64,000 bases of DNA from Amoebophrya sp. A120 (lineage: Eukaryota; Protista; Dinoflagellata): the NCBI GenBank assembly GCA_905178155.1, contig CAJINV010000028.1, forward strand, positions 169,235-233,234, given 5' to 3'. The notes below the pieces were generated by a model, which worked only from the letters and a program-made list of their open reading frames with translations, was not told where the DNA came from and did not search any database. Made by a program: the position numbers and the translations under genes. This document shows positions 14,611-40,901 of the stretch, one piece after another (positions within the stretch are counted from its first letter, which is position 1; each line of letters begins with the position of its first letter).

Positions 14611-14667
14611 TGAACAAAAACAATCTGATTGGCGGTGAGTCACCGCCAATCAGATTGTTTTTGTTCA
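14611..14667. repeat. Perfect 57-bp palindrome (28-bp arms, 1-nt centre)
   Basis: tgaacaaaaacaatctgattggcggtga-g-tcaccgccaatcagattgtttttgttca. Confidence 0.97.
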
Positions 14668-15318
14668 CCGTGACTAGCGTCAGCTCGTGCAGGTAGCAAG
14701 TTCTGTTCTTATTCGTGTCTGCTGTGTGGTCACTTCTACTTCTAGCTGCTTTATCGGGATTTTCGTTCATTTGTTCCCGAGAGGCTCCTCCCCGAACGGT
14801 GACGACAAGCAAACCGCTGCGAGAAAACTGTGGCAACCACAATGTGAACCTGGAGTGCAAACGAACACGAAAACCGTGGACCTGCGCGTCATCCTGTCTT
14901 TATTTTGAGAAGCTATTTTTGTTCGTGTCTTCCCTGCTCCTCTTTCGCTCCACACGCGCGACCCGGCGAGCCGCCATGGCTGGTTGCACATCTTACCAGC
15001 CGGCCCTCTCACTCTCAAAGCCGTCTCGCTGCCAAAATGCCCGCGCTCGAGCCTTTTCATCTTACGAGCCGGTCTCTCAGTTCGCGCAGCTGCGGAAGAC
15101 GCCGCTCCACTGCTGGCTGCAAGCGCAGCTGTTCAAGTTGCTCGCCTGCTGAAGCTCCTGCTTTCGCTCACTTTTGCTCTCCAGCTCGCTGCGCGTGATG
15201 CTTTTTCGCAACGAGCGCACACAAACACAGCACAGAAACAAAAGACGCCGCGTTCGTTAGGTCACGACCATGGTGTTGGTACTCAAGCAGAGAAAACGAC
15301 AACGACAAATACGGCAAC

Positions 15319-15864
15319 GGCCTGCACAAAGGCAGGCCACGGACCGCATGGTCAGAGGAGAGCTCGCCCCCGGGCAAAGATAACGAATTACCAGCACCCG
15401 GCCAGCCGCGAATGAATAGCGGCGAAGCCGGCGTGCAGACGCCCGGGGGTAAGCGGGTTACTGGCAACAGGCCCAGATGAACGTCGGGCCCGCGCCAAAG
15501 AGAGACAAAAAGCGGGCCCAGACTAGTAACATCGGGCCCGCGCAGCAGGCAGGTGCAACGGGCCAGAAAACTCGGGCCCGCCCCTTAGGCCTGGTTTGTG
15601 TGTGTAATTACTCACAGGAAGCGCGCATCGCATTCGGAGGCGCGTGTGAACGAGGGCGCCGCCCTACTAGTAAGCCTCCGGGCGGCAGGAGGGTGCACAT
15701 GCACAATGGGCAGGCCCCGCAATTGGTGCGGGGCGGCCCTGGTCGTAGGGGCGCGCCCAAAAAGGGCAGGCGCCGAAGCTGACGGGCCCACACCGCAGAC
15801 AAGCGGGGGGCCCATAATTTATATAGACAAAGGGCAAGCCCCGCAGACGACGCGGGGCGGCCCC
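15319..15864 (+). ncRNA. Putative structured RNA scaffold, copy 1
   Basis: About 11 consecutive GC-rich stem-loops, e.g. ggcctgc/gcaggcc, ccccgggc/gcccgggg, gcgggccc/gggcccgc, gccgccc/gggcggc, gccccgca/tgcggggc, ccccgc/gcgggg. G-U pairs favour the + strand. Transcription not shown. Confidence 0.6.
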
Positions 15865-15882
15865 GAAATTAAGCGACTGGCG

Positions 15883-16038
15883 AAGAGGTCCTCCAGGGTT
15901 GCCAATGTTGCACCGCGGTGGGGCCGACCGGTCCAGAAGTCAGCGGACGCCTAGGCGGCTACCTTGGACCCACTTCCCGTGGACCTTCCTCCGAGCGCCT
16001 TCCTCTTTGCCGGTCGCTGGGAAATGCGCGAAGCGATG
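15883..16038 (-). pseudogene. Variable insert 1 (same as insert 2 at 18566-18721), possible coding fragment
   Basis: Unique to cassettes 1 and 2. Minus frame reads SKVAA*ASADFWTGRPHRGATLATLEDLF; family not recognised. Confidence 0.35.
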
Positions 16039-18001
16039 GCGATTATGTCCGACGCGACGGCCGCGCATTTTGCGACAAGAAAACTTGAAGTGTCGCGCTT
16101 CATTCTGCGTCAAGTTGCAAACCGCATTACGACACTATGTGTGAAGGGTTTGTGTGATTGGATTGAATAAAAAAATGAAAATAAGTAAATAGCAGACGAA
16201 ATGAAGTAAAGTAAAGAAATGTAACATTCGATCCATTCAGAAGATTTCTACTACAACTCACCGTTGCTGGTGCCACGGCGCATGGTAAAACCTGAAAAAA
16301 AAAACAGAACCTTCTCTCTTCTCTCTGGCTTGCGGACTGTCACTCCGAGAGCACACGACGCAGCTTGCGCCGGTAGCCGTACACAGCGGTCATGTTCATC
16401 ACTCTCTGTATTGATGAAAAAAAAAAATCCCCTCGAGCCCATATGAAGCAATCAATCATTTCACTGATTTGCCCAACACATGAAAATAGGACTCTCGGCC
16501 TCGCCCGCTGATCGAAATACCCAACAAGATGGAGCGAAGTCATAGATCTACGCTAGCAACGTACTCAAACTCCGTGCTGCGGATGAAGAAACGCAGTCAT
16601 TGGGTCGCTCATTCACTCTCAGCTGCCGTCCTGTTCCATAACTGCGTGGGCTCAAAAAACATTCCAGAAAAATTTTTTAAAAAAAAAAATGAAAGGACAG
16701 TGAACTGCTGCAGAGCAAGTCCTGGTTCAGACCAGCTGAGCTACTCGCGACTCTGGGCGACTTCTTCTTCTGCAACGACGCTCCAAAAATTTACAATCAT
16801 GCTGATGGTAGTCCAGAGTATCTCCTGTCTTGTTTTGACCCGAAGCAATCCTAATCCAATTCGGGAACTTGTGTGTCCTCACAACAATCTGCTTTTGCAA
16901 GTCGTGTCACTTCTGTGATTTATTTTATCGCTGAGTTGAATCAAAATAATGCCTGCATGTTTGCGTAGTTGTCGTCCTCACGAACTCTTCCTAACAGCAC
17001 CTCCCGCCATCCTCGTCGCCAGCACTACCTTGAGCAACGGTAGTTCCAGCTATCCCGCTTCTCAGGGTCCGGGTCGGTGGAAGAAGCACGACAACAAATC
17101 TTCGGCCAACCAGCGAATGCGACGATACTATCGTCCTGGATGCACATGTGCGTCCGGTCGGCCTCTCATGGAGAAGAAGTGCAATGAGGTTTACCTCGGT
17201 CCAGAAAAACTCAGCTTTTGCGTTCTTGTTTTATCAATTAGAGCAAATCCTGCACATTTCTTGACGACGTGGGGCGGCGCCCTGAGGCGGAGGGAGGTGT
17301 ACTGAGGCGCACGATGCTGCTCCTCCGGTCGTAGGAGAAGCGGAAGCCCGCTCTTTTGGGTATCATCGCGGCAACCTGCTTCATGTCGATCAGCAATTTC
17401 GTATTCGTCCACCCGGGCGATGTATTGACTGGGACTTTTCACACTGTGACTCCTCCCCGAACAGTAGCAGGAAAAAACCGCTGCGAACCACAGTTGCGGG
17501 TCAATTACGGCAGCCGCAATGTGAACCTGGAGTGCAAACGAAAACGAAAACCGTGCACAAGTTCGTCATCATCATGTTGTTTTGAGAAGCGGCAACTATT
17601 CGTGTTTTCTCTCCACTCGCGCGACCCAGAGAGTCGCCAGGGCTGCGTGCGCAGCTTCCCGGCCAACGCTCTCACTCTCAAAAGCGTCTCCCACTCATTG
17701 TCCGTCTTATGGACCGGTCTCTCAGAATTTTGCTCACAGTGAATGATCCACATGCAAGACCTGTGGAAAACGGAAAACGCCGCTCCCCTGCTGGCTGCAA
17801 CGCAGCTGTGCAAGTTGTTCGCTTAAAGCTTCTACTTTCGCTCACTTTTGCTCTCAAGAAGCTCGATGAGTGTGATGCTTTTACCCAGAGAGCGCACACA
17901 AACACAGACACACAGATACACAAGACGCCGCGTCTGTTAGGTCACGGCCGTGTTGCTGGAACTAATAGAGACAACCAAACGACAACGACAAATACGGCAA
18001 C

Positions 18002-18547
18002 GGCCTGCACAAAGGCAGGCCACGGACCGCATGGTCAGAGGAGAGCTCGCCCCCGGGCAAAGATAACGAATTACCAGCACCCGGCCAGCCGCGAATGAAT
18101 AGCGGCGAAGCCGGCGTGCAGACGCCCGGGGGTAAGCGGGTTACTGGCAACAGGCCCAGATGAACGTCGGGCCCGCGCCAAAGAGAGACAATAAGCGGGC
18201 CCAGACTAGTAACATCGGGCCCGCGCAGCAGGCAGGTGCAACGGGCCAGAAAACTCGGGCCCGCCCCTTAGGCCTGGTTTGTGTGTGTAATTACTCACAG
18301 GAAGCGCGCATCGCATTCGGAGGCGCGTGTGAACGAGGGCGCCGCCCTACTAGTAAGCCTCCGGGCGGCAGGAGGGTGCACATGCACAATGGGCAGGCCC
18401 CGCAATTGGTGCGGGGCGGCCCTGGTCGTAGGGGCGCGCCCAAAAAGGGCAGGCGCCGAAGCTGACGGGCCCACACCGCAGACAAGCGGGGGGCCCATAA
18501 TTTATATAGACAAAGGGCAAGCCCCGCAGACGACGCGGGGCGGCCCC
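18002..18547 (+). ncRNA. Putative structured RNA scaffold, copy 2
   Basis: Near-identical to copy 1. Confidence 0.6.
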
Positions 18548-20685
18548 GAAATTAAGCGACTGGCGAAGAGGTCCTCCAGGGTTGCCAATGTTGCACCGCG
18601 GTGGAGCCGACCGGTCCAGAAGTCAGCGGACGCCTAGGCGGCTACCTTGGACCCACTTCCCGTGGACCTTCCTCCAAGCGCCTTCCTCTTTGCCGGTCGC
18701 TGGGAAATGCGCGAAGCGATGGCGATTATGTCCGACGCGACGGCCGCGCATTTTGCGACAAGAAAACTTGAAGTGTCGCGCTTCATTCTGCGTCAAGTTG
18801 CAAACCGCATTACGACACTATGTGTGAAGGGTTTGTGTGATTGGATTGAATAAAAAAATGAAAATAAGTAAATAGCAGACGAAATGAAGTAAAGTAAAGA
18901 AATGTAAACATTCGATCCATTCAGAAGATTTCTACTACAACTCACCGTTGCTGGTGCCACGGCGCATGGTAAAACCTGAAAAAAAAAACAGAACCTTCTC
19001 TCTTCTCTCTGGCTTGCGGACTGTCACTCCGAGAGCACACGACGCAGCTTGCGCCGGTAGCCGTACACAGCGGTCATGTTCATCACTCTCTGTATTGATG
19101 AAAAAAAAAAATCCCCTCGAGCCCATATGAAGCAATCAATCATTTCACTGATTTGCCCAACACATGAAAATAGGACTCTCGGCCTCGCCCGCTGATCGAA
19201 ATACCCAACAAGATGGAGCGAAGTCATAGATCTACGCTAGCAACGTACTCAAACTCCGTGCTGCGGATGAAGAAACGCAGTCATTGGGTCGCTCATTCAC
19301 TCTCAGCTGCCGTCCTGTTCCATAACTGCGTGGGCTCAAAAAACATTCCAGAAAAATTTTTTAAAAAAAAAAATGAAAGGACAGTGAACTGCTGCAGAGC
19401 AAGTCCTGGTTCAGACCAGCTGAGCTACTCGCGACTCTGGGCGACTTCTTCTTCTGCAACGACGCTCCAAAAATTTACAATCATGCTGATGGTAGTCCAG
19501 AGTATCTCCTGTCTTGTTTTGACCCGAAGCAATCCTAATCCAATTCGGGAACTTGTGTGTCCTCACAACAATCTGCTTTTGCAAGTCGTGTCACTTCTGT
19601 GATTTATTTTATCGCTGAGTTGAATCAAAATAATGCCTGCATGTTTGCGTAGTTGTCGTCCTCACGAACTCTTCCTAACAGCACCTCCCGCCATCCTCGT
19701 CGCCAGCACTACCTTGAGCAACGGTAGTTCCAGCTATCCCGCTTCTCAGGGTCCGGGTCGGTGGAAGAAGCACGACAACAAATCTTCGGCCAACCAGCGA
19801 ATGCGACGATACTATCGTCCTGGATGCACATGTGCGTCCGGTCGGCCTCTCATGGAGAAGAAGTGCAATGAGGTTTACCTCGGTCCAGAAAAACTCAGCT
19901 TTTGCGTTCTTGTTTTATCAATTAGAGCAAATCCTGCACATTTCTTGACGACGTGGGGCGGCGCCCTGAGGCGGAGGGAGGTGTACTGAGGCGCACGATG
20001 CTGCTCCTCCGGTCGTAGGAGAAGCGGAAGCCCGCTCTTTTGGGTATCATCGCGGCAACCTGCTTCATGTCGATCAGCAATTTCGTATTCGTCCACCCGG
20101 GCGATGTATTGACTGGGACTTTTCACACTGTGACTCCTCCCCGAACAGTAGCAGGAAAAAACCGCTGCGAACCACAGTTGCGGGTCAATTACGGCAGCCG
20201 CAATGTGAACCTGGAGTGCAAACGAAAACGAAAACCGTGCACAAGTTCGTCATCATCATGTTGTTTTGAGAAGCGGCAACTATTCGTGTTTTCTCTCCAC
20301 TCGCGCGACCCAGAGAGTCGCCAGGGCTGCGTGCGCAGCTTCCCGGCCAACGCTCTCACTCTCAAAAGCGTCTCCCGCTCATTGTCCGTCTTATGGACCG
20401 GTCTCTCAGAATTTTGCTCACAGTGAATGATCCACATGCAAGACCTGTGGAAAACGGAAAACGCCGCTCCCCTGCTGGCTGCAACGCAGCTGTGCAAGAT
20501 GTTCGCTTAAAGCTTCTACTTTCGCTCACTTTTGCTCTCAAGAAGCTCGATGAGTGTGATGCTTTTACCCAGAGAGCGCACACAAACACAGACACACAGA
20601 TACACAAGACACCGCGTCTGTTAGGTCACGGCCGTGTTGCTGGAACTAATAGAGACAACCAAACGACAACAACAAATACGGCAAC

Positions 20686-21229
20686 GGCCTGCACAAAGGC
20701 AGGCCACGGACCGCATGGTCAGAGGAGAGCTCGCCCCCGGGCAAAGATAACGAATTACCAGCACCCGGCCAGCCGCGAATGAATAGCGGCGAAGCCGGCG
20801 TGCAGACGCCCGGGGGTAAGCGGGTTACTGGCAACAGGCCCAGATGAACGTCGGGCCCGCGCCAAAGAGAGACAATGAGCGGGCCCAGACTAGTAACATC
20901 GGGCCCACACAGCAGGCAGGTGTAACGGGCCAGAAAAATCGGGCCCGCCCCTTGCGCCTGGCTTGTGTGTGTAATTACTCACAGGAAGCGCGCATCGCAT
21001 TCGCAGGCGCGTGTGAGTGAGGACGCCGCCCTACTAGTAATCCTCCGGGCGGCAAGAGGGTGCACAAGCACAATGGGCAGGCCCCGCAATCGGTGCGGGG
21101 CCGCCCTGGCGGAAGGCGCGCGCCCAAAAAGGGCAGGCGCCGAAGCTGACGGGCCCGCGCCGCAGGCACGCGGGGGGCCCGTTATTCATTAGACAAAGGG
21201 CAAACCCCGCAGAAGGCGCGGGGCGGCCC
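20686..21229 (+). ncRNA. Putative structured RNA scaffold, copy 3
   Basis: Same stems; changes mostly in loops and linkers. Confidence 0.6.
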
Positions 21230-21599
21230 AAAAAGCTTTGCTCTGCGCGGTGGCGGGCGCTCTTGTACTGCGTGCCGGCGGGGCCCGGACGTAGCCGAAC
21301 GGAGTCCGGGCGCCGGTCGCCGTGTACCAGGCGGCAACGCCGGGCACGCAGGTCGCCACCCTGACCGATAGGGGCACCGTTCCCGGCACCGCGGCGGCCA
21401 GGTATTCCCGCACATTGCACGGATTTCCCGCAAGATTTGCCAGACACGGTTCCACGGCAGGCACTCCCGCAAGGGCTGTGATCTTGTCCCGCAGCGTGGC
21501 TCCGGCGTTGCTGCAGGAACAGGACCCCGCGCTGGGAAAAAGTTCCTCCGAGCTGAAACGGCAACAGTATCGGAACGGGCAGCCTCTTCTCCGTTTTTC
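21230..21599 (-). pseudogene. Variable insert 3: possible tyrosine-recombinase core-binding (SAM-like) domain fragment
   Basis: Minus frame NVREYLAAAVPGTVPLSVRVATCVPGVAAWYTATGARTPF resembles the V..YL...TI....AI..WH...G...P pattern of DIRS/Crypton-type YR N-terminal domains. Confidence 0.45.
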
Positions 21600-23780
21600 C
21601 TCGAGCGGCGCAGCACGGCTTGCAGGTGGAAACGCACCACTTTGCATCGCCGGGCGAATGATGCCACAACATGCTGACTTGCTGGTCGCTGGCAAGTGCG
21701 CAGCACAGCCGCGACTGCGCGAAATGTCAGACGCGACGGCCGCGCATTTTGCAACAGGAAAATTGTCGCTCTTCATTCTGCGTGAAATTGCAAAACGTAT
21801 CACCACACTATTTGTGCAGGCTTCGTATAGTCGGGTTGAGTAAAATGAAAAATAGCAGACGAAGAAAATGATAATTCTCAAACTTGCTGTTGCTAGCACG
21901 ACGGGGCATCGTTAAGTCTGACAAAAAAAAACCAAACTTCTCTCTTCTCTCTTGCTTGCGGACTGTAACTCCAGGAGTTACAACACGAAATTATCCACCC
22001 AATTATTTGTTGCACACGGATACGACGCCTGTGCCGGTAGTCATACACAGTGGTCATGTCGTCTACCAAACATCTCGGTAGAAGTGAAAAACAAACCCGC
22101 TCAAATGAGTCATCGGTTTGCCCAACACGTGAAAAAATAGGACTCTCGGAGGTCTCTCTTCCTGATCGAACTTCCCAAGACAGCGGAGCGAAGTCATATG
22201 TCTAGACCAACACCGCACTCAAACTTCGTATTGCGCATGAGCAAGGACAGCCATCGGGTCGCTCATTCACTCTCAGGTGCCATCCTCTTCCACAAAAAAA
22301 AGCCGCGAGGAAAAAAACATTTCAGAAAAAGCCGAAAAAAAAATAGTAGCAAGGTCAAAACCGCGGGAGAACATTTCCTGGGTCAACTAACCGCGTTCAT
22401 TGCGATTGCGGGCGACAATCCCGCAAGGTGCCTCCACAAATTTACAATCATGATGAAGTTGATGCTGGTAGTCCATAGTACCCAATGTCTTTTGCTTTTC
22501 ACCTGGTTAACTGCAAGGAATTTTGTGTCACTTCCATCTACTTGTTGTGCAAGACGTGTCCTTCTAATCGCTGTGTTGAATTGATACAGTGTTTGCATAT
22601 TTGCGCCGTAGCACTGGTCCTTACAAACTCGTCCTACCACCACATCCCGCCACCCTCGTCACCAGCACCACCTCGAGCAACCGTAGTTCCAGATCCAGGT
22701 CCTCAGGGTGGAGGAAATGCGGCGGAAGACTCCGGTTGGCTGCGAGTGCGAGGGTGCCGTCGTTCTGAATGCACGTGCGGTGGTCTTCCACAGAGGTCGT
22801 GAAACGAAATCACGTGGTTTCCCGCGATCGCAGACCAGTCGTCATCCACGGTCTCAATCGTGGTGGGGCTCGCACGGCTCTTCTTCAAAGCGTCGAGAAA
22901 CTAAAGCGACAGACCGAGATGTGCAGAGGGATAAGATGGCCGTCTGAGTCGTTGTAGGTGGAGAAGACGTTTCATATTGACATCATCTTCCGTGCCGGCT
23001 TCTTGTTGAGCACCAGCTCCGTGTCCGAGCTGCCGGTCGGTGTACTACAACTCTTTGCTGGCGGCACCGTCTTATTCACATCGTGGCGTCCTCTCGTCCC
23101 CGACGGCAGATTAGAGCAAGCCGCAGCAGAAGTGGTTCAGAAATGCCGCTGCAAGGGCTCCACCGACGTTCAGCAGCTGCAGTGCACTGTGCAAACAAAG
23201 ACGGAAAACTACGGACCTCTGGTGCGTCATCATGTTCATTCGCGAAGCCTATTATGCTTCTTGGATCACCTACCCTTCTTGCTCGCTCTCCGCAAGCCGC
23301 GCAACAAGCTGCTTGCATCTCTCTTCTTCTACCCTTCTTGCTCACTCTGTCCCGGAAAAATCACGGCTCACTCAAACAGGCAACACTTCTTCGGTGCCCG
23401 CCTCACTGGTGGGGCTTCTGCCCAAACCAGTCTCTCAACCAAGAAGAAACATCTCAACGACTAAAACGAGAATCCAAATCACGCTGCGATGCAACAACAC
23501 CAGCAGGTGGGAAAATAAGCAACGCCTCACTCGTTGCTTCAGATGCACAATTTGCAAGCGCAGGTATTAATAGATGCTGTTGCCATGCTCTTGCTCCGAG
23601 CGGTCGTTGTCCTCAATATTCAGCCTTTGCGTACCACAGGAAAACAACACAAACACACGACGACATGAAAGAACAACCGCAACAAATCGACAGGCCGCCC
23701 AAAAACTTGGGTAGCGTCAGTCCTCTTGTCGGGACGGGTTTTGCGAGATTGATATCAACGACAAACACCAAAGCGGCAAG

Positions 23781-24337
23781 GGCCTGCACAACAGCAGGCC
23801 ACGGACCGCATGGTCAGAGGAGAGCTCGCCCCCGGGCAAGGATAACGAATTATCAGCACCCGGCCAGCCGCGAATGAATAGCGGCAAAGCCGGCGTGCAG
23901 ACACACGGGGGTAAGCGGGTTACTGGCAACAAGCCCAGATGAACTTCGGGCCCGCGCCAAAGAGAGACAATGAGCGGGCCCAGACTAGTAACATCGGGCC
24001 CGCACAACAGGCAGGTGCAACGGGCCAGAAATAAAATCTAAATCAGGCCCGCCCCTTGAGCCTGGCTTGTGTTGTAATTATTCACAGGAAGTGCGCATCG
24101 CATTCGCAGGCGCGTGTGAACGAGGGCGCCGCCCTACTAGTTAGTAAGCCTCCGGGCGGCACGAGGGTGCACATGCACAATGGGCAGGCCCCGCAATCGG
24201 TGCGGGGCGGCCCTGGTGATAGGGGCGCGCCCAAAAAGGGCAGGCGCCGAAGGTGTTGGGCCCGCACCGCAGACACGCGGGGGGCCCATAATCTATTAGA
24301 CAAAGGGCAAACCCCGCTGCGAACGCGGGGCGGCCCC
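23781..24337 (+). ncRNA. Putative structured RNA scaffold, copy 4
   Basis: Same stems; loop insertions (agaaataaaatctaaatca; ctagttagtaag) and altered last loop (tgcgaac). Confidence 0.6.
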
Positions 24338-24355
24338 AAAATTAAGCGACTGGCG

Positions 24356-24489
24356 GAGACGGCTGCAGGTTAGTCCATCCCGCGCGTGGTCCCGTCCGTC
24401 TTGCGATGTCTGCGCGTCCACTGAGAATGGCAACCTGTGCAGCGGAACGCCATCTCAAACGAGGGGGCGTTTTCCTCCGTTGTTTTGTT
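24356..24489 (-). pseudogene. Variable insert 4: CxxC zinc-finger-like fragment
   Basis: Minus frame APSFEMAFRCTGCHSQWTRRHRKTDG; compare MECSSCRLWWRRK in insert 8. Confidence 0.4.
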
Positions 24490-26577
24490 GAAGAGCTGGC
24501 GGCATTCAAGTGAGAAAAGCCGCCCCACTTCCAGGAGGAGACAACTTTGCCATGCGATTCGTGTGTGCGCAAACCGATGAACAAAAAACTCCTGTTGAAA
24601 GAATGTGAAGCGGATGGCAGGGCGCCAAAAAATAAAATAATCCAACTTGGGAACCGCTCAGTCTTCTTCCTCACGCAACGTTCACTGAAGACCTTGCCCA
24701 CACTCTTGCTGGTAGTCACATACAAACACGCTCATGTCCGTACTTCTGTATTGCTGAAACTGACTTCTGCGAGCTCAAGACAAGATAAACCCATCAGCGC
24801 CGGTGGTGTACTGTTCACATGAAAATGGCTGGGTCTCTCAATCTCGCCTTTGGAACTGGGTTCTCGGAATTCCAAATACAAGCAAAAAATTCAGAGTACA
24901 AGAAAGATGGCCCATTATACGCAAAAAACGCACTAAAAAATGCTTCGCTTGCGAAAACTCCTAGTACCTCGGGTCGCTCGGTCATCACTCTCAGCTACCG
25001 CCACCATCCACAGAAAAAAACGCGACGATTCAAAAAATCATTTCTCAAAAATCCGGCTCAGGTGAAAAAAAATGGCCACAGAAAAAAATATCCGAAGAAC
25101 AAATCAGTGCCAATCGACATTACAAGTAACTGCACTGTGGTCGTCTGCAGATTCATCTACAACCGAGTCGACAAATCAATGGTCTTGATGGTAAGCCGTA
25201 GCACTTGAAATGTGCAGCCTCAGACCCTTGCTACTACGTCAGAGTACTTAAGCAGCAATTTGATAAGAAAAGCAAGGTCAGCTTGGCTTTCATCTTTCGT
25301 TTTCTATTTCTAGCCGAGAGATCCCGTAATTTTTTTGTTCTTCGTCCCCGCCACGTGTACATGCTATACTTCATCTTTTCATATTTGGTGCTGGAGCAAC
25401 AGTCTGCCAAGCAGATTCGCAGATTTATTTTCTGTCCTTTTCATGTACTTTCGCAAAACAAGAACTTGTTTTCGTGCTTCTACTTAATCCCAGAGTTGCG
25501 CTATTCATCAAAATAGTCATGGTCTCTCGTCGTCGTTCTCGCACACTCTTCCTAGCTGCACCTCCCGCCATCCTCGCCGCCAGCACCGCTTCGAGCTACC
25601 ACGGTTCCAGATCCCGCTTCTCCGGGTGGAGGGAGCACGATGAGAGATTTTCGGCTAGCCTGCGGGTGCGACGACGCAAGTGCGGCCTGGATGGTCAATG
25701 CGTCCTGGATGCACATGTGCGTCCTCGTCTCGGCCTCCCATCGCGGATTGAAATGAGGTTTACGCTTACCCCGGTCCAGCGAGACTTGGTTTTCTTGTTT
25801 CATCAATTGGAGCGAGTCTTGCACGGTTCTTGACGACGCGGGGGAGCTAAAGGGCTGGAGGGAGGTGTACAGCTGAGGGAATTTAACATGAACTTGGAGG
25901 TCATAGCAGAAGTAGAAGCCGTGTCCTCTTGATGTCAACATCTTTGCGACCGCCGGGTTTATGAAGATCAGCACCTGCGTATCCGTCCCGGTTGATGTAC
26001 TCACTGGTACTTTTCACACCCTGACTTCATCTCCTCTCCGAACGGTGACGGGAAAAAAACCGCTGCGACCCAGAGTTGCAGGTCAACTGCGGCAGCCGCA
26101 ATGTTAACCTGGAGTGCAAACGAAAACGGTAAGCTTGGACAACGGCGTCATCATGTTGTTCTGAGAAGCGGTCACTTTTCATGCTTTCTCTCCGCTCGCG
26201 CGACCCGGCGAACCGCCAGCGCTGCGTGCGCAGCTTCAGTACCAGCGCTCTCACTCTCAAAAGCGTCTCCCGCTCATTGTCCGTCTTACAGACCTGTCTC
26301 TCAGAATTTCGCTCGCAGTTGTCAATGATCCAGATGCAAGATCTGCGGAAGACGCCGCTCGCCTGCTGGCTGCACTCGCAGCTGTGCAAGTTATTCGCCT
26401 AGAGCTTCTACTTTCGCTCACTACTTTTGCCCTCAAGAAGCTCGCTGCGCGTGGTGCTTTTGTGCAGAGAGCTACAGAAACACATATGTACACAGATACG
26501 AAAGACGCCGCGTTCGTTAGGTCGCAGCCGTGTGGCTGGAACTGCAGACATAAAACAACGACAACGAATACGGCAAC

Positions 26578-30033: not shown

Positions 30034-30455
30034 GATGTCCTGCTAGTTAGTCTGGCGACGACGCAGCGGCGGCATTGCGGGCGATCCGGCGTTCATCCTG
30101 CGAGAGTATCACACAGAAAAATACTGGCAGGCTACATTTGGAATGCAAAAATAAAGATCCAGTAGAATGGCACGAGGGCGCGCATGACAGATTTTTCTGT
30201 GTCTTTCTGTTTGCATTACAGTTATGCCCTGCCAGCTTTTTTCTGTGGGATAGAAAGTTGGCCTTCATCATACGGGTTGACTCCCCTTAGGCACTTGTAG
30301 CACCCGACCGCTAGGCGGGTCGGGTGCACCCCCGGAGGAAGTACACGGCTTGCCACAAGGCATAGCCGGCATTTTGGAGATTCCGGCTGGGGCAACCCGT
30401 AAGGGCCGGTGCCGTCATGTCCTCTTGGAGTTGCACACAGACGAACCGCCTCTTT
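30034..30455 (-). pseudogene. Variable insert 6: zinc-finger gene fragment with retained introner
   Basis: PKCRLCLVASRVLPPGVHPTRLAVGCYKCLRGVNPYDEGQL|SQDERRI; paralog of insert 8, differing largely at synonymous sites. Confidence 0.8.
30107..30252. mobile_element. TIR introner inside insert 6
   Basis: tatcacacagaaaaatactggcagg ... cctgccagcttttttctgtgggata; removing it plus 5 nt restores the frame. Confidence 0.85.
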
Positions 30456-32246
30456 TGTATAGAAGGAAAAAAACCAAACATCTCGGTAGAAGTGATGAAA
30501 ACAAGCACATCGTGCTCAAATGAGTCACCGGTTTGCTCAACACGTGAAAATAGGACTCTCGGTCCCTCTTCCTGATCGAACTTCCCAAGACAACGGAGCG
30601 AAGTCATATGTCTAGACCAACACCGCACTCAAACTCAGTATTGCGGATGAGCAAAAACAGCCATCGGGTCGCTCATTCACTCTCAGCTGCCGTCCTCTCC
30701 CACAAAATGAAAATCAAAAAAAGTCGCGAGGAAAAAAATATTAATATCTCAGAAAAACCCAAAAAAAAATAGTTGCATTGACGAAACCGCTACCGCGGGA
30801 GAACAATTCCTCGGTTAACTAGTAACCGCGTTCGTTGCGATTGCGGGCGACACTCCCGCAAGGTGTCTCCACAAATTTACAATCATGCTGAAGTTGATGC
30901 TGGTAGTCCAGAGGACCCAATGTCTTTTGCTTTTCACCTGGTTAACTGCAAGGAATTTTGTGTCACTTCCATCTACTTGTTGTGCAAGACGTGTCGTTCT
31001 TGTAATCGCTGCGTTGAACCGATACAATGAAAGCATATTTGTGCCGTAGCACTCGTCCTTACAAACTCGTCCTAGCCGCAGATCCCGCCACTCTCGTCAC
31101 CAGCACCACCTCGAGCAACCGTAGTTCCAGATCCAGGTCCTCAGGGTGGAGGAAATGCGGCGGAAGACTCCGGTTGACTTCTGCGAATGCGAGGGTGCGG
31201 TCGTTCTGAATGCGCGTGTGGTGGTCTTCCACAGAAGTCGTGAAACGAAATAACGTGGTTTCCCGCGATTGCAGAACAGGCGTCATCCACGGTCTCAATC
31301 GTGGCAGGGCTCGCACGGTTCTTCTTCAGCGCGCCGAGGAACTGAAGCAACGGACCGAGGCGTGCAGACGGGTAAGATGGTCGTCTGAGTCGTTGTAGGA
31401 AAAAGAGCCGCTTCGTCTTGACATCATCTTCCGCACAGGATTCCTATAATTGAGCACCAACTCCGTGCCCGTGCCGGTCGATGTACTACAACTCTTTGCT
31501 GGCGGCACCGTCTTATTCACATCGTGGCGTCCTCTCGTCCCCGACGGCAGATTAGAGCAAGCCGCAGCAGAAGTGGTTCAGAAATGCAGCTGCAAGGACT
31601 CCACCTACGTCCAGCTCCAGCGCACTGTGCAAACGAAGACGGAAACCTACGGACCTCTGGCGCGTCATCATGTTTATTCCTATTCGCGAAGCCAATTATG
31701 CTTCTTGGATCACCTACCCTTCTTGCTCGCTCTCCGCAAGCTGCAAACACGGGTGCTTGCATCTCTCTTCCACCCTTCGTACTCACTCTGTCCCGGAAAA
31801 ATCACGGCTCACTCAAACAGGCAACACTTCTTTGGTGTCTGCCTCATTGGTGGGGCTTCGCTCGAGCTTCTTTGCCCAAGTCAGTCTCTCAACCAAGATC
31901 AAGAAGAAGCATCTCAACAACAAGAATGAGAATCCAAATTCCGTTGCGACACAACAGCACCAGCAGCAGCAGGTGGGAAAATAAGCAACGCGTCACTCGT
32001 TGCTTCAGATGCACAATTTGCAAGCGCAGGTATTAATAGATGCCGTTGCCATGCTCTTGCTCCGAGTGGTCGTTGTCCTCAGTAATCAGACTTTGCGCAC
32101 CACAAGAAAAAAACACAAACACACGACGGCATGAAAGAACAACTGCAAAAAATCGACAGGCCGCCCAAGAACTTGGGTAGTGTCCGTCCTCTTGTCGGGA
32201 GGGGTTTTGCGAGATTGATATCAACGACAAACACCAAAGCGGCAAC

Positions 32247-32789
32247 GGCCTGCACAACAGCAGGCCGCGGACCGCATGGTCAGTGGAGAGCTCGCCCCCG
32301 GGCAAGGATAACGAATTACCAGCACCCGGCCAGCCGCGAAACAACAGCGGCAAAGCCGGCGTGCAGACGCCCGGGGGTAAGCGGGTTACTGGCAACAGGC
32401 CCAGATGGACGTCGGGCCCGCGCCAAAGAGAGACAATGAGCGGGCCCAGACTAATAACATCGGGCCCGCGCAGCAGGCAGGTGTAACGGGCCAGAAAAAT
32501 CCGGCCCGCCCCTTGCGCCTGGCTTGTGTATGTAATTACTCACAGGAAGCGCGCATCGCATTTGCAGGCGCGTGTGAGTGAGGACGCCGCCCTACTAGTT
32601 GTTAAGCCTCCGGGCGGCAAGAGGGTGCACAATGGGCAGGCCCCGCGATGGATGCGGGGCGGCCCTGGAAATAGGGGCGCGCCCAAAAAGGGCGGGCGCC
32701 GAAGCTGACGGGCCCGCGCCGCAGACACGCGGGGGGCCCGTAATTCAGCACACAAAGGGCAAGCCCCACAGACGGCGCGGGGCGGCCCC
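32247..32789 (+). ncRNA. Putative structured RNA scaffold, copy 7
   Basis: Same stems, loop variants, one stem mismatch in the last hairpin. Confidence 0.6.
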
Positions 32790-33396
32790 GAAACTAGGCG
32801 GCCGGCGGAAGCGCGCAACTATGTGGCGTCTCTCCGCAAAGAGCGCAGGGTCTTCCCCTTTGGCAGGTTAAAGACATGCCGCAGCGCTCCAAAGGATCCT
32901 GCCAGGCTTGTATGGTACAGAAAGTAGCAGTCGAGGCGGATTTGTTGGACAAAAATGGAACAGCAGAAACATCCGTCATGCTCATGGGCAAGCTCCTCCT
33001 GGCATGCTGCTTAAGCGCGGATCATTTTTCTCGATGCTTATTGTTGCACAACAAATGTGCCCCGCCTGCTCTTTTCTGCGGGATACCGCTTCGCCGCGGC
33101 CGCGCGGAAGAAGGTGGCTCGTTTGCTCGGCATGTCGGCCGAGGCCGGCCAAAGCACCCGCGTTGGGTCCCCGGTCGCTGCCAGGAGCTGCGGGTATCGA
33201 GCTGTTTATTCCCCACCGTGATGGTGATAGTACACCACGACGCCGGCTCGCACCGTTGTGCCCCAGCGCTTACACCGGAGGCATCGCAACCCGTCAGCGG
33301 ACGCCGCGGCTGGGCTATCTCCGTAAGGCCGGAGACGCCTCGGACTCGGCGGAGCCACTGGCAGGAAAATACGAATGATGTGCTGCCCGCCGTGAC
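32790..33396 (-). pseudogene. Variable insert 7: decayed tyrosine-recombinase catalytic-domain-like fragment with retained introner
   Basis: Box I-like LRP/TEIAQPR (frameshifted), VVVYYHHHGGE*TARYP, VLWP, then across the introner AKR|LAGSFGALRHVFNLPKGKTLRSLRRDAT, like the YR Box II (H/Y)SLRRGGAT. Confidence 0.55.
32911..33085. mobile_element. TIR introner inside insert 7
   Basis: tatggtacagaaagtagcag ... ctgctcttttctgcgggata (imperfect TIR). Confidence 0.7.
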
Positions 33397-34436: not shown

Positions 34437-34762
34437 TATCAAAAGGAAAAATCCCGCCTCCCCATATCAAAAGGAAGTTTCTGATGCTGGATCTGCGTAC
34501 ACAAATCAGCTTTGTATTGCAGAGAGGCACTGCGGACAGATCTCCAGGCTAGATAGGGGCGTATGCATGTGTCTAGTTGTTTAGCATGGCAAACGGCTCC
34601 CCTTTAGGCCCAACAGCATGACAAATCGCCTCTGTAATGGGGGCAAAGCTTTTGCCCCTGTCTTTTTGCAAGACAGATGTGATTTGTGACCTCAAATCAG
34701 CAACGCAAATTTTCAGAAACAGGCCTTTTCGATATGGGGAGGGGGGATTTTTCCTTACAATA
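34437..34762. mobile_element. TIR element (introner family) in the spacer of cassette 7, 5-bp TSD ccatc
   Basis: ccatc|tatcaaaaggaaaaatcccgcctcccc ... ggggagggggggatttttccttacaata|ccatc-type ends; the equivalent site is empty in other spacers (~17025, ~22665). Confidence 0.9.
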
Positions 34763-35690
34763 CCATCTCGTGCTACCGCAGTTACAGACCCCGCTTCTCA
34801 GGGTGGAGGAAGTACGACGAGAGATCTTCGGCCAACTGCAAATCCGAGGATGCGATCGTCCTGAATGCACATGTACGTCTCGGCCTCCCATCACGAAGCG
34901 AAATGAGGTTTGCCGCGGTCCGAAGCGGGTCCGCACTCTTGTTTCATCCAATAACGCAAGTTTTGCACGGTTCTTGACGACGTGAGAGCGCAGGAGGGAG
35001 TTGTTGGTGTACCGAGGGAAAAGAACATGAATGCTGGATTTCGTAGGAGAAGTAGAAGCCGTGCCTGTGTCCTCTTGATATCAACGGAGTACCTTTGTAT
35101 CCGTCCCGGTCGATGTACTCACTGGTACTTTTCACACTCTGACTTCATCTCCTCTCCGAACGGTGACAGGAAAAAAACCGCTGCGACCCAGAGTTGCAGG
35201 TCAACTGTGGCAGCCGCAATGCTAACCTGGAGTGCAAACGAAAACGGAAAACGTGGACAAGGGCGTCATCGTGTTGTTTTGAGAAGCGGTCACTTTTCGT
35301 GCTTTCTCTCCACTCGCGCGACCCGGCGAGCCGCCAGCGCTCGTGCGCAGCTTAGCGGCAACGCTCTCAGCACTCTCAAAAGCGTCTCCCGCTCATTGTC
35401 CGTCTTGCGGACCTGTCTCTCAGAATTTCGCTCGCAGTCAATGATCCAGATGCAAGATCTGCGGAAGACGCCGCTCCACCGCTGGCTGCAAGCGCAGCTG
35501 TGCAAGTTGTTCGCCTAGACCTTCTACTTTCGCTCACTTTTGCCCTCAAGAAGCTCGCTGCGCGTGGTGCTTTTGCGCAGAGAGCTACAGAAACACATAT
35601 GTACACAGATACGAAAGACGCCGCGTCCGTTAGGTCGCAGCCGTGTGGTTGGAGCTGTAGACACAAAACGACAACGACGCATGCGGCAAC

Positions 35691-36234
35691 GGCCTGCAAA
35701 CAGCAGGCCACAAACCGCATGGTCAGTGGAGAGCTCGCCCCCGGGCAAAGATAACGAATTATCAGCACCCGGCCAGCCGCGAATGAATAGCGGCGAAGCC
35801 GGCGTGCAGACGCCCGGGGGTAAGCGGGTTAATGGCAACGGGCCCAGATGAAGGTCGGGCCTGCGCCAAAGAGAGACAATGAGCGGGCCCAGACTAGTAA
35901 CATCGGGCCCGCGCAGCAGGCAGGTGTCACGGGCCAGAAAAATCGGGCCCGCCCCTTAGGCCTGGTTTGTGTATGTAATTACTCACAGGAAGCGCGCATC
36001 GCATTCGCAGGCGCGTGTGAACGAGGGCGCCGCCCTACTAGTAAGCCTCCGGGCGGCAAGAGGGTGCACATGCACAATGGGCAGGCCCCGCATTCGGTGC
36101 GGGGCGGCCTTGGCGGAAGGGGCGCGCCCAAGAAGGGCAGGCGCCGAAGCTGACGGGCCCGCACCGCAGACACGCGGGGGGCCCGTAATTTATTAGACAA
36201 AGGGCAAGCCCCGCAGATGGCGCGGGGCGGCCCC
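35691..36234 (+). ncRNA. Putative structured RNA scaffold, copy 8
   Basis: Same stems as the other copies. Confidence 0.6.
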
Positions 36235-36318
36235 AAAATTAAGCGACTGGCGGGGAAATCCTCCGAGAATTCTGCTGCGGCTATAACAGGCCACGAACCT
36301 GCGCTCGTCCTGAGAGTG

Positions 36319-36464
36319 TATCACACAGAAAAACGCTGGCAGGTTACATTTGGAATGCAAACATAAAGATCTAAGAAAATGGCACGAGGGCGCCCATGAC
36401 AGATTTTTCTGTGTATTTCTGTTTTCATCACAGTTATGTCCTGCCAGCTTTTTTTTGTGGGATA
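36319..36464. mobile_element. TIR introner inside insert 8 (same codon position as 30107-30252)
   Basis: Same TIRs and 146-bp length as the insert 6 element. Confidence 0.85.
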
Positions 36465-36622
36465 GACAACATGCCCTCGTCGAAGGGATTCACCGGCCTC
36501 AGGCAGCGGTAGCACGCGATGGTCAACCTGGTGGGGTGGATTCCCGGAGGAAGTACACGGCTTGCCACGAGGCAGAGCCGGCACTTAGGCAGAGCCGGAG
36601 GCGGAATGGTTTTGCAATGATT

Positions 36623-36746
36623 TATCCTGAGGAAAAACGTGCCCAGCACCTTCCTGTCGGTCGAATCTGCATGCGCGGAATGGTGTTCATGCGCGACAGC
36701 AGCGGGCTGGCGTTATGGTGGGGCAGGCACGTTTTTCCACGGGATA
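36623..36746. mobile_element. Second TIR introner inside insert 8
   Basis: tatcctgaggaaaaacgtgcc ... ggcacgtttttccacgggata. Confidence 0.85.
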
Positions 36747-38009
36747 TCTCCCCACTCAGCCTTGGTGTATGCTTTCCGGCGCCACCACAGGCGGCAAGAA
36801 CTGCATTCCATGTAGTTCCCCGCGCGGCTCTGCAGTGCTATTGTCCTTGCATACCGTCGTAGGACATAACGCCTCCGCGTCCGGATTCATCCCGCGGTCG
36901 CACTGATAGCACGTCACTTAAAACGTCTTTACGTGCATCCAGCAGGGGAAGAGCTGGCAGCATCCAAGTGGAAAAAGTCGCCCCACTTCCAAGAAGAGAA
37001 AACTTTGCCATGCGATTCGTGTGTCTCAAACCGATGAACAAAAGATCCTGCTGAAAGAATGAATGTGAAGCGGATGTATGGGGAACCGAAAAATATAAAT
37101 AATCTAAGTTGCGGACCGCTCAGTCACTCAACTTTCACTCAAGACCTTGCCCACGCTCTTACTGATGCTAACACAACGCACTCATGTCCGTATTTCGGTA
37201 TTACTGAAACCGGCTTCCACGAGTTCAAAATATAGACCAGTCCATCAGGAGCGCCGGCGGTGTACTGCTCGCATGAAAATGTCTAGCTCTCTCAAGCTTG
37301 CCTCCTGATCGGAATGCCCAATAAAACCCGAAACAGGGCACGTCCGCAAAAAACGCACTCGACGCTGCGCTTAACGAAACTCGTGGTACCTCGGGTCGCT
37401 CGTTCATCACACTCAGATGCCGCCCGTTTTCACGGAAAAAAAACGATGCGATGCAAAAAAAAAAAGATGAAAATCCTTTCACGAATTTGAAAAAAAAAGG
37501 CACCGACGGCACCGCGGAAGAACATTTTGAAGTCAATCGAGGCTAATTACTGCACTGTGGCCATCTGCAGATTTATTCCTAACTGAGTCGACAATTTCAC
37601 GATCTTGCTAGGTTGGAGTAGTGCAAGTACTTGTAAATTGATTTTCATCCTGGACCTTTACCATTACCTTTTACAAGGAAATACGACTCCGAAAGTAGAA
37701 ATTCGATCGCGGTATGAGGAGTAAATGGTAGAGCAGCAAGAATCTGAAGTGCATACATAAGGCGAGCACGGTCAGCTTGTCTTTTCTATTTCTAACTACC
37801 GAGACTTGTGGTCCTTCGTCCTCGTCACGTGGTCCACCAGGCGGACACACATTCATTTTTCCTGCAGTTACTTTCTTGCTACAAAGAAACTCCTCTTCGC
37901 GCCCAGAAGCAATCGCGCCGTCTAGAGCAGCTGCTCGTGCCAGGAGCAAATTGCTCTATGAAGATCGCTTCTGTCGAACCGCTTCGCCGCAGAATAATCT
38001 CGACCACCC

Positions 38010-40901
38010 CTAGCGACCACAGCTTCCGCTCGTCAGCGTGATGGAAAGGCGGTAGAAATCTTCGGTGGACTGCGAATGCGAGGAGGCAGTTGTCCTGGAT
38101 CCGGGTTTGGACTTCTTCACGACCGGCTTTTTATCGATCAGTACTTTTTATGCAATGCAAATATCCCTGGAGACGTCTGGAAGGATTCGAAATTGTGGCG
38201 CTAAAACAAGAACAAACGCGCCGACATTGCCACTGTCCATTATCGCTGGGGAACCAAGCCTCCCCAGGCGCTGGAGCGCCATAGGGTCGGAGCGAATTTG
38301 TGATGCGAATTCTACATCGTGACAAAATCTGTCATGCACGTTCACAAAAAGGCCCCACTTCTTGTTACAGAAAGAGCGGCCTATTGTCATGCGGATTATA
38401 CATTGGGCCGATACCTGCGTGAAACCTGTGATGCTAGAACTTGCATGCCAGACGATCTCATCTGCGTCAGGCAAAAACTGCATGACAAATGTCTGCACTC
38501 TTCCAGACGACCCAGACATATTTATCCCTTTGATACTTCTGTGTCCGTGCAGGTCACGATGAACTCCGTTATCCACTGCAAGAGTATCGTACACGTACTC
38601 GTTGTAGTACTTGCATTTATGCATTGCAAATTTCTTTCTTAAGGCAAATCAGAATTACAGATTTAATTTGTAATGCTGGGCTAATTTGTATTATATGCAA
38701 GTTATTATATACTAGTACGATACTTTTCCATTTCGTATCCGTAGTTCCACAACCAGTGGCTCGTCTTCCATTGTGGCTGTTGGGCCGTGCTTCCGTGGCC
38801 TTAAAGATGCCCTCGCCGCCGTTAGAAAAGAGGTTAGCGACATCCTGTCTGGTAGTCGAAAACGGTGGGGGACGTCGCGCGCCCGCGGGGTACTCGATGG
38901 TGGCGAGGTAGTACGCAACATGATGCTGGTCCACAACCTGGTGGTCATGTTCATCTTCATTCGTGTTGGTGCTTTTGCTTTTGGTCGGTAGTTGTTGGCC
39001 ACGACTGTCTCCCTGCCCGTCGACACAAGTTGTCGGTGAAAGAATTGAATGCTGCTCGTGGTTCTTGCGCAGCAGCAGCAGGCGGGTCACGTACTCCTTG
39101 TGGGTAGCCGGCTCCATGGCGACCAGGGAAGCAAAGTCGAAGATCAAATTTGGAACCCAAGAAGAACGGGAAAACATCGAATCCGAGCGGTTTTTCATTC
39201 CCGGTGCCAAGGGTTCGCTGTGCTGCCGGTTCATCTTCTCCTGCGCGGTAGTTGTAGCTGCACTCGCTGCCCTTATTTCTTGCGGCGTCCTCTCCGGCAC
39301 AGCAGCTCCGTCACCAGCACCCGGTCCTCGCACGTCAGAACAATTGATGTCGACGTTTTTCTCTGTACGCATCGTGATCATGCTGGGGAAAAGCACGCTT
39401 GCGACCTGGCCCATGTCGAATTGCAGAATGTCCTGCTGGACTACGTACAGCTTCCTCAGCGCCTTCGCTTTGTCATCACACATCATCCTCTATCAAATGC
39501 AAAAATGTCTGGATCTGGAAAAATGCGCGATCTGTCATGCAGCTTTATTTGCATGATCCATGAGGACTGGAATGCAGGACGTAGCATGACAGATTCTGCG
39601 CGATCTCTCTGCTGCCTATCGTGCATGAGAAACTCCCTCGCCACTTGGTCAGAACTGGACGACTTTTGGTAATCATGCAACACAGATTTTTGCATGCTTC
39701 AGATTTATAGCATGACAAGTTGCATTTTTCCAGACCCAGACTACATTTCTACATTTGATATCTTCACCTTGTCGTGCACTTCGCTTTTTGAGGCTTCGTA
39801 CGTCCACCACGAGAAGCTGTGCTCGTAGTTCTCCGCAGCTGTAGTTGTGTCGTCTACTAGTTCTTGCGCACGGATCGGTTCCACATTCGCATGGTTCCTT
39901 TTCGTCGCGATCACCAAGTTCTTTTTGCCTGGTGGCGCTTGGTCGTCCACAGGCGACTTTGGTCTTTGTAAATCGGGTGGTCCATCGCACGTCTCCGGAG
40001 CGCCGGTTTTTTCCGCTTTTCGTAGCCATTCCGCGATGACTATCACGAGAAAAAAGTGTTACAGTTACCCACGTGTTGGAGTTTCTGCATCACAGATTTT
40101 CTCTTTGTGGCAGAGAAAACTTGTAATGCGAAGATCATAAAGAGAAAACAGGAAGGAAACGAGGCTCACATTCACAAGCATTTCCCGCATGAGAAAGGTT
40201 GTCTGTGTTGCCGGTCTTGCATTACAATGTGTAAGATAAGTGTAACACTTTTCTCGTGCAATAATGACCTTCGGCAGCTCCTCCCGAAGGGGGTACTCGC
40301 ACACTTTGCCTATGCGTCGCAAATATGATTTCTGGGATGTCGGGAAGCAGAGCACTTGTATGTACTGTGCTGCGGAATGTTTATGTTTGAATAAGGAGGA
40401 AAAAGTCTATGATGCATCTTCAAGCGGACGAGAGCTAGTGCGCAGTTGTCATGCAGAAGCGCAGTTTCTCATGCAGTTTGCGCAACGGAATCGCGTACCC
40501 GTACCCTTCAACAGATTTATCATGCCTGGTGGGGTACTGTAGTCGGACTGTGTGATGTATCCTGCAGAAACTAGCATGTGCATGACATGGCTTCACCTCG
40601 CCCAGACACTTTTGTACGAACGCGTATCGATGCCGATGACGTGGGACACTTCCGGTTGTTCCGCGAAAAACAGCAAGTCAGCACTCGCACCGCAACAGGG
40701 AACCAGGACCACTCCGTGGAGATCCTCCTTGCGAATCTTGTTTAGCAGGTACTCCCGACGCTCTCCCACGTGCCACGTCGGTGAGTGGTCTTTCGTGCCC
40801 GGTACCCATCGCTTCGCCCAATAGTTGGGATCCAGAGCAGCCACGTCGAGGGCCATTTTTTCTTCTAGCGGGGTAGTTGCGCAGCTCGTAATTGTTGGCA
40901 T
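38010..40901 (-). CDS. TPMT: Thiopurine S-methyltransferase-like SAM methyltransferase, 6 exons split by introners
   Basis: YWAKRW..TWH, VLVPCCGASADLLFFAEQ..VIGID, QDILQF, LIFDFASLVAMEP..KEY, EYPAGARRPPPFSTTRQDVANLF, EFIVTCTDTEVL..TEDFYRL*. The last three junctions were checked in frame by removing each element plus 5 nt. Confidence 0.85.
38149..38535. mobile_element. Introner (TPMT intron)
   Basis: tatgcaatgcaaata ... ccagacatatttatccctttgata; flanks ctttt/cttct. Confidence 0.8.
38570..38737. mobile_element. Introner (TPMT intron), perfect TSD tccgt
   Basis: tccgt|tatccactgcaagagtatcgtac ... gtacgatacttttccatttcgta|tccgt. Confidence 0.9.
39491..39760. mobile_element. Introner (TPMT intron), TGTCTGGGTCTGG family
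   Basis: tatcaaatgcaaaaatgtctggatctggaaaaatgc ... gcatttttccagacccagactacatttctacatttgata; flanks tcctc/tcttc. Confidence 0.9.
40041..40263. mobile_element. Introner (TPMT intron), perfect TSD atgac
   Basis: atgac|tatcacgagaaaaaagtgttaca ... tgtaacacttttctcgtgcaata|atgac. Confidence 0.9.

Follow-up and report, generated by a model that had tools for sequence, protein, structure and literature searches.

A tandem array of conserved hairpin-rich cores beside changing segments in Amoebophrya sp. A120: possibly an RNA locus of a new type that captures sequences

Layout of the array

Amoebophrya sp. A120 is a marine parasitic protist, one that controls harmful algal blooms. In the window analysed here (the whole stretch of 64,000 nt from contig CAJINV010000028.1), at least eight units of 2.2-2.9 kb stand in tandem, each composed of a conserved hairpin-rich core and a DNA piece that differs between units. 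The features are as follows.

14785..15296, A-type left flank, which bounds the array on this side
15315..15864, core 1, multi-hairpin conserved segment
15865..16006, insert 1, the same as insert 2 (18548-18689), for which no homolog was detected
16007..16970, minus strand, spacer S (example, unit 1), acceptor-like motif at 16294
16970..17450, minus strand, segment T (example), decayed relative of the TPMT-like last exon (E 1.6e-13 to 38003-38118)
17998..18547, core 2, in the duplicate of units 1 and 2
20682..21229, core 3
21230..21599, minus strand, insert 3
23777..24337, core 4
24338..24489, insert 4, joined to its own spacer by an RNA contig
26574..27123, core 5
27124..27257, insert 5, joined to a core by an RNA contig
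29477..30033, core 6
30034..30472, minus strand, insert 6, coding for a Stc1-like zinc-finger fragment that lacks a start codon
30107-30252, introner inside insert 6
32243..32789, core 7
32790..33385, minus strand, insert 7, its minus frame broken and in one stretch weakly similar to monoglyceride lipase (E 0.003)
34437..34762, young introner in T of unit 7, high-copy by depth and loose ends, with a perfect 5-bp target duplication
35687..36234, core 8, linked with insert 8 in an RNA contig
36235..36947, minus strand, insert 8, Stc1-like zinc-finger ORF
36313..36463, introner A, spliced out in three RNA runs (joint 36312>36464)
36617..36745, introner B, likewise spliced out in the three runs (joint 36616>36746)
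37612..40856, minus strand, TPMT-like methyltransferase gene (Pfam TPMT E 4.6e-6, translation, RNA end at 37612), the right boundary of the array

Eight multi-hairpin cores of ~545 nt and seven distinct inserts beside them, as announced in the preliminary description, were recovered. Units 1 and 2, with cores 1 and 2 inside, are 99.7% duplicates; two copies are assembled and about four are suggested by DNA depth. Outside the core the units are mostly 50-90% alike, and identity between units is 91-94% in the core, 49-89% in S and 59-93% in T. The left flank occurs as type A (before cores 1, 2, 3, 5 and 8) and as a distantly related type B (before cores 4, 6 and 7), with about 50% identity between the two. 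The summed DNA depth over core 8 fits about 8-13 copies, in agreement with the view that the core is not the terminus of a dispersed element. GC content is 57-66% in the inserts against 45-52% in the flanks. A GC island at 41550-42650 was considered as a diverged core and rejected.

In an Rfam scan at E<=1, the array region had no match, and the four weak matches all lay outside it. A tRNA scan gave no match inside the array. Among 39 ORFs and 48 read-through frames, Pfam detected no cas gene and no TnpB, Fanzor or IscB nuclease.

Conservation and folding of the core

The core is about 550 nt long, and the seven distinct cores are 90.6-94.2% identical in pairs. Folding of core 1 gave z -7.0 on the plus strand (0 of 100 shuffles as good) and z -6.7 on the minus strand, and the alignment of cores folded at -276.6 on the minus against -259.7 on the plus strand. 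Both core strands fold equally well, and the idea of one folding strand is not confirmed. Variable positions are rarer in stems (16/190) than in loops (24/99; p 0.0005). Covariation is not significant, with both-side changes in two pairs and 44 of 500 shuffles as good, in a test that left out five long-range pairs and had one pair off by a column. The loops are A-rich on the plus strand (64/99), a feature of many plus-folding RNAs.

Likeness among the cores could be explained by gene conversion alone. In the core alignment, 210 of 378 informative site pairs are incompatible with a tree, and patchwork exchange among cores is thereby shown. In the libraries searched, a set without a repeat library, no known element matched the core, and its motifs were absent from the viral and prokaryote contigs searched; one match in a bacterial contig was judged to be chance. 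The core ends showed neither target duplication nor poly-A. Closure of the core by a helix with a YGGCG motif was also considered and rejected, being inconsistent.

The inserts

The seven inserts (135-715 nt) each follow a core in plus coordinates. The junction with the core is ragged rather than sharp: past the core, shared sequence decays over 14-35 nt, and the YGGCG motif is also present there. Among 21 insert pairs, only 6/8 is clearly homologous, apart from a 120-nt spacer-side block of 3/5. Inserts 4, 5 and 7 as distant homologs of 6/8 failed pairwise comparison. In units 3, 5 and 6 the spacers are about 90% identical while the inserts differ, which shows that inserts turn over fast.

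The best reading frame had been placed opposite the folding strand in all inserts. For inserts 6 and 8 minus-strand coding is confirmed (pS 0.64, pN 0.16 over 40 codons), and among the others just insert 3 adds support, since with the block 21600-21720, common to unit 5, all its minus frames are stop-free over 461 nt. A best frame on the minus strand is not confirmed for every insert: insert 7 has its sole stop-free frame on the plus strand, and its lipase likeness is without Pfam support. A codon test of insert frames, with a weak model and one of seven training pieces in the wrong frame, did not extend the claim to the other inserts. After splicing, insert 8 yields a 112-aa Stc1-like zinc-finger ORF (annotated gene model P0001) which ends inside the core.

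Homology searches found no source gene for any insert, and for this reason capture of fragments is something that we infer. The inserts stand at single-copy depth at 88-90% identity, at odds with the intact multicopy sources that had been expected. In the protein collection no longer relative turned up for pieces of inserts 8, 3 and 7; these are weak negatives, and one query included introner DNA. HMMER against 1.84 billion representatives returned only the unit-8 gene model and one repetitive snail protein, which was judged spurious. An Atlas search gave an Stc1-like lead of 0.90 for insert 8 and no match for insert 3, PDB had no match below E 0.09 for inserts 3, 5 and 8, and a fold model of insert 7 reached pLDDT 31, too low for use. 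The proposed derivation from tyrosine-recombinase elements found no match in Pfam, PHROGs, NCBIfam, PDB, plasmids or the protein collection, searches which short decayed fragments can escape.

Spacers and introners

The spacer DNA is indeed shared between units, but it is not inert, for it contains a decayed 3' end of the TPMT-like gene. The 3' end of that gene was duplicated into the units. Minus-strand acceptor-like motifs homologous to the one at 16294 lie at 18978, 21920, 27607 and 33647, and another lies at 37053. In S, T, A and B, pN/pS values of 0.56-1.41 single out no coding frame, and no ORF common to the units was found. On these pN/pS and ORF comparisons, a conserved N-terminal ORF in S and plus-strand ORFs of A/B running into the core were rejected. 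Of 19 indels in T and B, 14 are multiples of three and resemble local slippage.

Amoebophrya introners are characterized by inverted repeats starting with TAT, an A-run end and short direct repeats, and they are spliced out (PMC7789003). The elements inside inserts 6 and 8 correspond to this definition.

Transcription and strand

Three runs were treated as RNA and compared with a DNA run, because introners kept in the DNA run are skipped in them; introner A, for example, is kept in an unbroken DNA contig (36224-38455). A 994-nt RNA contig spans 35797-37070 from core 8 into insert 8 with both introners spliced out, and both splice joints are present in all three RNA runs. Core and insert are thus co-transcribed and spliced in unit 8. 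Loose contig ends also place inserts 4, 5 and 6 in RNA contigs. The proposed combination of a constant structured core with a swapped segment therefore exists at the RNA level in at least some units.

The preliminary description had the plus strand transcribed, with antisense inserts. The geometry of the RNA ends points, indirectly, to the minus strand. The ends at 25187, ~34184 and 37612 fall within about five alignment columns of each other, 37612 being the 3' end of the TPMT-like mRNA, and each of the others (18951, ~24579 and 37070) has a minus-strand acceptor-like motif 13-27 nt away; no equivalent conserved motif was seen on the plus strand. Since RNA ends match the TPMT mRNA 3' end and the minus acceptor motifs, the array transcripts are likely minus-strand, with the inserts sense and 5' of the core. 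Both genes flanking the array are on the minus strand, and Amoebophrya genes form unidirectional clusters (PMC7789003). Both gene models annotated here lie on the minus strand, and none of six plus-strand candidate ORFs is annotated. The readable inserts are sense to the minus strand, strongly for 6 and 8, moderately for 3 and weakly for 7. Splice-site tables did not distinguish the strand.

In contig depth, most of the core and most inserts lie far below T and A/B, and RNA depth drops inside the first 100-200 nt of the core. No RNA contig covers 37139-37590 in the three RNA runs, although a contig gap is not proof of silence. The unit-2 RNA contig ends 40 nt before the shared 3' end. Two raw-read runs gave one and zero reads.

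Comparison with known systems

No known family fits the array. The omega (re)RNAs of TnpB and Fanzor also set a constant structured part beside a variable one; their scaffold is ~120-150 nt and the guide, read past the transposon end, 17-20 nt (10.1101/2023.08.09.552727). In contrast, the array has a 550-nt core and spliced inserts of 135-715 nt without dispersed copies, and, unlike TnpB, Fanzor and IscB, it has no nuclease gene match, no Rfam match and no sharp element end. CRISPR shares the tandem layout of constant and variable parts, the latter turning over. However, its repeats and spacers are short, whereas the array units span 2.2-2.9 kb and are each likely their own transcript, with ragged junctions, no cas match and no target found.

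LINE template-switch chimeras, such as U6-L1 and WEIRD-MGL of Magnaporthe, join a piece of cellular RNA, in sense orientation, to the 5' side of a constant part (PMC2104539). Such chimeras are dispersed and have target duplications, whereas the array occupies one locus with homogenised cores, no poly-A junction and no LINE identified. Helitron and Pack-type elements resemble the array in captured gene fragments, a terminal hairpin and tandem copies. A Helitron ends in a 3' hairpin and CTRR, then T, and its copies are dispersed. The array termini do not fit, and its copies are not dispersed.

The GC-rich RUF6 ncRNAs beside var genes of Plasmodium offer a conserved GC-rich element adjoining variable sequence in an alveolate parasite, but the array element is co-transcribed and spliced with its variable part and has no Rfam match. 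piRNA clusters likewise have a long precursor with fragments of other genes; in the array, however, the fragments are likely sense, one per unit and beside a constant core. Antisense multicopy content of the piRNA type was not found, the inserts being single copy at 88-90% identity, although more diverged sources are possible.

Interpretation

The preferred reading, held tentatively and falling somewhat short of probable, is a tandem ncRNA family in which the core-adjacent segment is repeatedly overwritten by gene fragments, possibly silencing tags. The units would be likely non-coding transcription units, likely read on the minus strand, and each RNA would run from a short leader through the captured fragment peculiar to its unit and the 550-nt hairpin core to a 3' part, which likely takes its polyadenylation site from the duplicated TPMT 3' end. 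On this reading, a reverse transcriptase copying array RNA likely switches template at the 5' edge of the core to another mRNA, and the chimeric cDNA then overwrites a unit through recombination in the core. Such overwriting would give sense orientation, ragged junctions, variable spacer loss and homogenised cores. A spliced mRNA as template is disfavoured by the introners inside inserts 6 and 8, unless these arrived later. The core would bind a protein and present the fragment as a putative sequence tag; its most likely use would be in homology-dependent silencing, once it had been copied into antisense small RNA.

The array is judged new because of its architecture, and it may represent an RNA locus of a new type that captures sequences for a putative function. 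If the inserts are used, it would be a eukaryotic sequence-acquisition system distinct from CRISPR, omega RNA and piRNA clusters; should they be passengers, there would still be the core, an undescribed 550-nt conserved structured element. The core belongs to a lineage with unexplained RNA processing, in which U1 snRNA was not detected and >60% of introns are non-canonical (PMC7789003).

A less likely reading, but still a serious contender, takes the core for an element acting at the DNA level (as promoter, origin or recombination hot spot) or for an RNA with a role of its own, and the inserts for functionless passengers. Core cruciforms would break, and repair would drop random DNA alongside. 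The strand-neutral folding, the GGGCCC palindromes (4-5 sites per core), the early fall of RNA depth in the core, the lack of any insert target found and the two very diverged types of left flank are in line with it. However, RNA contigs cover the whole core and insert 8, turnover is concentrated at one side of the core, and the readable inserts are co-oriented, a weak point from few cases.

An unlikely extension of the preferred reading is a eukaryotic acquisition array with fragments possibly from the dinoflagellate host or viruses, whose tag-plus-scaffold RNAs would direct silencing or cutting of matching sequences as a heritable memory. Host or viral origin is possible because the inserts are GC-richer than the flanks and lack a close source in the parasite DNA.

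Slightly more doubtful is a set of fast-evolving minus-strand genes for short proteins, with inserts as coding exons and the core as a structured 3' UTR. The open 112-aa ORF of unit 8 would suit this, and one and the same core stop ends the ORFs of units 3, 5 and 8. Purifying selection is seen between 6 and 8, but in no other pair. Moreover, there is no common N-terminus under selection and there are several upstream AUGs, no start codon is present in unit 6, unit 8 begins with a frameshifted repeat, inserts 1, 4 and 5 are just 135-155 nt, insert 7 contains 3-4 stops, and the inserts are mutually unrelated.

It is improbable that the plus strand yields scaffold-guide RNAs whose antisense fragments target tyrosine-recombinase elements. 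DIRS-type elements have overlapping ORFs, which could leave insert 3 open in three minus frames; the A-rich plus-strand loops and a motif in insert 7, which by eye we take to be Box-II-like, point the same way. Against this stand the RNA-end geometry favouring minus, the lack of a recombinase match in the collections searched and of a multicopy source at 88-90% identity, and the ragged 135-715-nt inserts, so unlike guides of 17-20 nt (10.1101/2023.08.09.552727). An equally small chance is given to a non-autonomous rolling-circle or other mobile element in tandem copies that captured flanking DNA at one end, since, although CTGG lies 14 nt past the terminal hairpin in units 1, 2, 4 and 8 and Helitrons are known for gene capture and tandem arrays, CTGG is followed by C, not T, and is missing there in units 3, 5 and 7, the copy number fits the array alone, and the host TPMT 3' end forms part of the repeat unit.

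Organization of the array

Self-comparison of the window yields eight copies of a hairpin-rich core of ~550 nt within 15315-36234, adjoined by seven distinct inserts, and the array reported in the preliminary description is real. On the plus strand, the elements of a unit are arranged in this order:

left flank, of type A or B
core, the conserved segment
insert, the differing segment
spacer S
segment T, a decayed copy of the 3' end of a TPMT-like gene

Distant homology is found between S and S', and between A and B. Segment T is similar to the final exon of a minus-strand TPMT-like gene (37612-40856), and tandem duplication of a block carrying the TPMT 3' end thus gave rise to the array. None of the frames in S, T, A, and B has a coding signature. 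Units 1 and 2 form a 99.7% duplicate. The depth of DNA contigs, which is only a rough guide, is 136-160 over these units against ~40 elsewhere, and suggests ~4 copies, two of them assembled; window positions 15864-21229 are probably a collapsed assembly of this repeat at ~4x single-copy depth. As for the surroundings, a large minus-strand multi-exon gene (902-13420) includes an 1841-aa exon; the gene has domains resembling TerD and ubiquitin, along with a zinc-finger-like stretch. A GC-rich island (41550-42650; 64%), unrelated to the core, lies upstream of the TPMT-like gene and has long open frames on both strands.

The seven distinct cores share 90.6-94.2% pairwise identity. For S the range is 49-89% and for T 59-93%, and A agrees with B at ~50%, so that the core is far better preserved than its surroundings. 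Among 378 pairs of informative core sites, 210 conflict with a single tree, a pattern indicative of gene conversion or unequal crossing-over. The segments following cores 3, 5, and 6 are 87-93% identical in S, T, and B, yet their inserts differ, indicating that insert turnover outpaces flank divergence. Only one of 21 insert pairs (6/8) is homologous, apart from a 120-nt spacer-side block of inserts 3 and 5. Core-insert junctions are ragged, with the common sequence fading across 14-35 nt past the core; YGGCG occurs 14-21 nt beyond the core in all seven distinct units, and the amount of S lost varies between units.

Transcription and folding

Transcription was read from runs X3-X5, which come from one sample of one study and were assigned as RNA by guess. 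A single contig (35797-37070) bridges core 8 and insert 8, and loose contig ends match inserts 4, 5, and 6. T and A/B have deeper contig coverage than most of the core and inserts, a comparison of low weight since contigs are unsuited to ranking gene parts. Three contig ends align within ~5 columns: 25187, ~34184 (a position derived from record length), and 37612, where the TPMT mRNA has its 3' end. The opposite ends, at 18951, ~24579 (matched by eye), and 37070, each have a minus-strand pyrimidine-AG motif 13-27 nt away, and such motifs recur in five S spacers. Neighboring genes are on the minus strand, as are both annotated models within the array. Against this, core loops are A-rich on the plus strand and one contig stops 40 nt early. 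Taken together, contig ends, acceptor-like motifs, and neighboring genes indirectly make minus-strand transcripts highly probable. The inserts would then read as sense and sit 5' of the core, opposite to the plus-strand, antisense layout first proposed.

The structure of the core is thermodynamically real. On either strand, core 1 gives a far more stable fold than its shuffled versions (z -7.0 plus, -6.7 minus), and the core alignment folds slightly better on minus. Variable sites occupy 16 of 190 positions paired on both strands versus 24 of 99 unpaired positions (p 0.0005), a contrast partly confounded by base composition. Covariation tested in the core was not significant. Thus, the folding strand, earlier given as plus, cannot be read from core structure. 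The core had no Rfam match. Immediately left of the array lies a near-perfect 70-nt inverted repeat (14605-14674), whose miRNA matches are all sub-threshold.

Proposed origin and possible function of the units

The units most likely represent a non-coding RNA family in which the core-adjacent segment is occasionally overwritten. A silencing-tag function of the RNAs is putative and our best guess; the overall reading with this role included is tentative, at somewhat below even chances. Reverse transcriptase would switch template at the 5' edge of the core, and recombination within the core would then fix the chimeric sequence in a unit. These steps would account for sense inserts, ragged ends, spacer loss, and homogenized cores. 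Such capture is suggested by analogy to chimeric retrotranscripts (PMC2104539).

That the inserts are passengers adjoining a fragile or regulatory core is rather unlikely. Short protein genes with a common 3' UTR are improbable, and the array differs from a coding array on the features tested. Inserts 6 and 8 are coding on minus (pS 0.64, pN 0.16, 40 codons). Their product resembles an Stc1-like zinc finger, an Atlas lead at 0.90 in which 34% of the cluster carries the family, with no Pfam match; splicing of insert 8 leaves an ORF annotated as a protein in Amoebophrya sp. A120. Insert 3 with the shared block has no minus-strand stop triplets in 461 nt (8.8 expected; 0/300 shuffles). Insert 7, with stops read through, weakly matches monoglyceride lipase (E 0.003), a likeness that Pfam does not support.

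Antisense guides against tyrosine-recombinase elements, as initially put forward, are very unlikely: several searches of the inserts, which short decayed fragments can escape, found no recombinase. No longer source protein came up in the searches for one. A mobile element capturing sequence is equally doubtful. The DNA run places the inserts on unique contigs with depths of 37-46, and depth summed over core 8 at 88% likeness mostly falls between 260 and 520, or ~8-13 copies, so that neither is a young dispersed family; insert sources may be of greater divergence. Features for comparison with known systems include DIRS overlap, Helitron termini, and recombinase motifs. On the features tested, the array belongs to neither CRISPR nor Helitrons, nor to omega RNA (10.1101/2023.08.09.552727). 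A literature search, with most subscription papers outside it, returned no description of the locus or layout. The locus is real, transcribed, and undescribed, and its function is putative.

Introners

Elements within inserts 6 and 8 fit the introners of strain A120, as defined in PMC7789003, and would be later insertions under template switching. The DNA run retains both introners of insert 8, which X3-X5 skip. Inserts 6 and 8 share an introner (30107-30252; 36319-36464) that is 90% identical, while adjoining synonymous sites are near saturation, and the two target-site copies in unit 8 differ at three of five bases. It may have moved between these paralogs by gene conversion. Splicing of 36313-36463 and 36617-36745 removes the element plus ~5 nt on just one side; calibrated on known genes, this asymmetry could reveal the transcript strand. 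Amid many introner-like repeats, an 870-nt direct duplication (49506-50370 and 55493-56359) has 95% identity.
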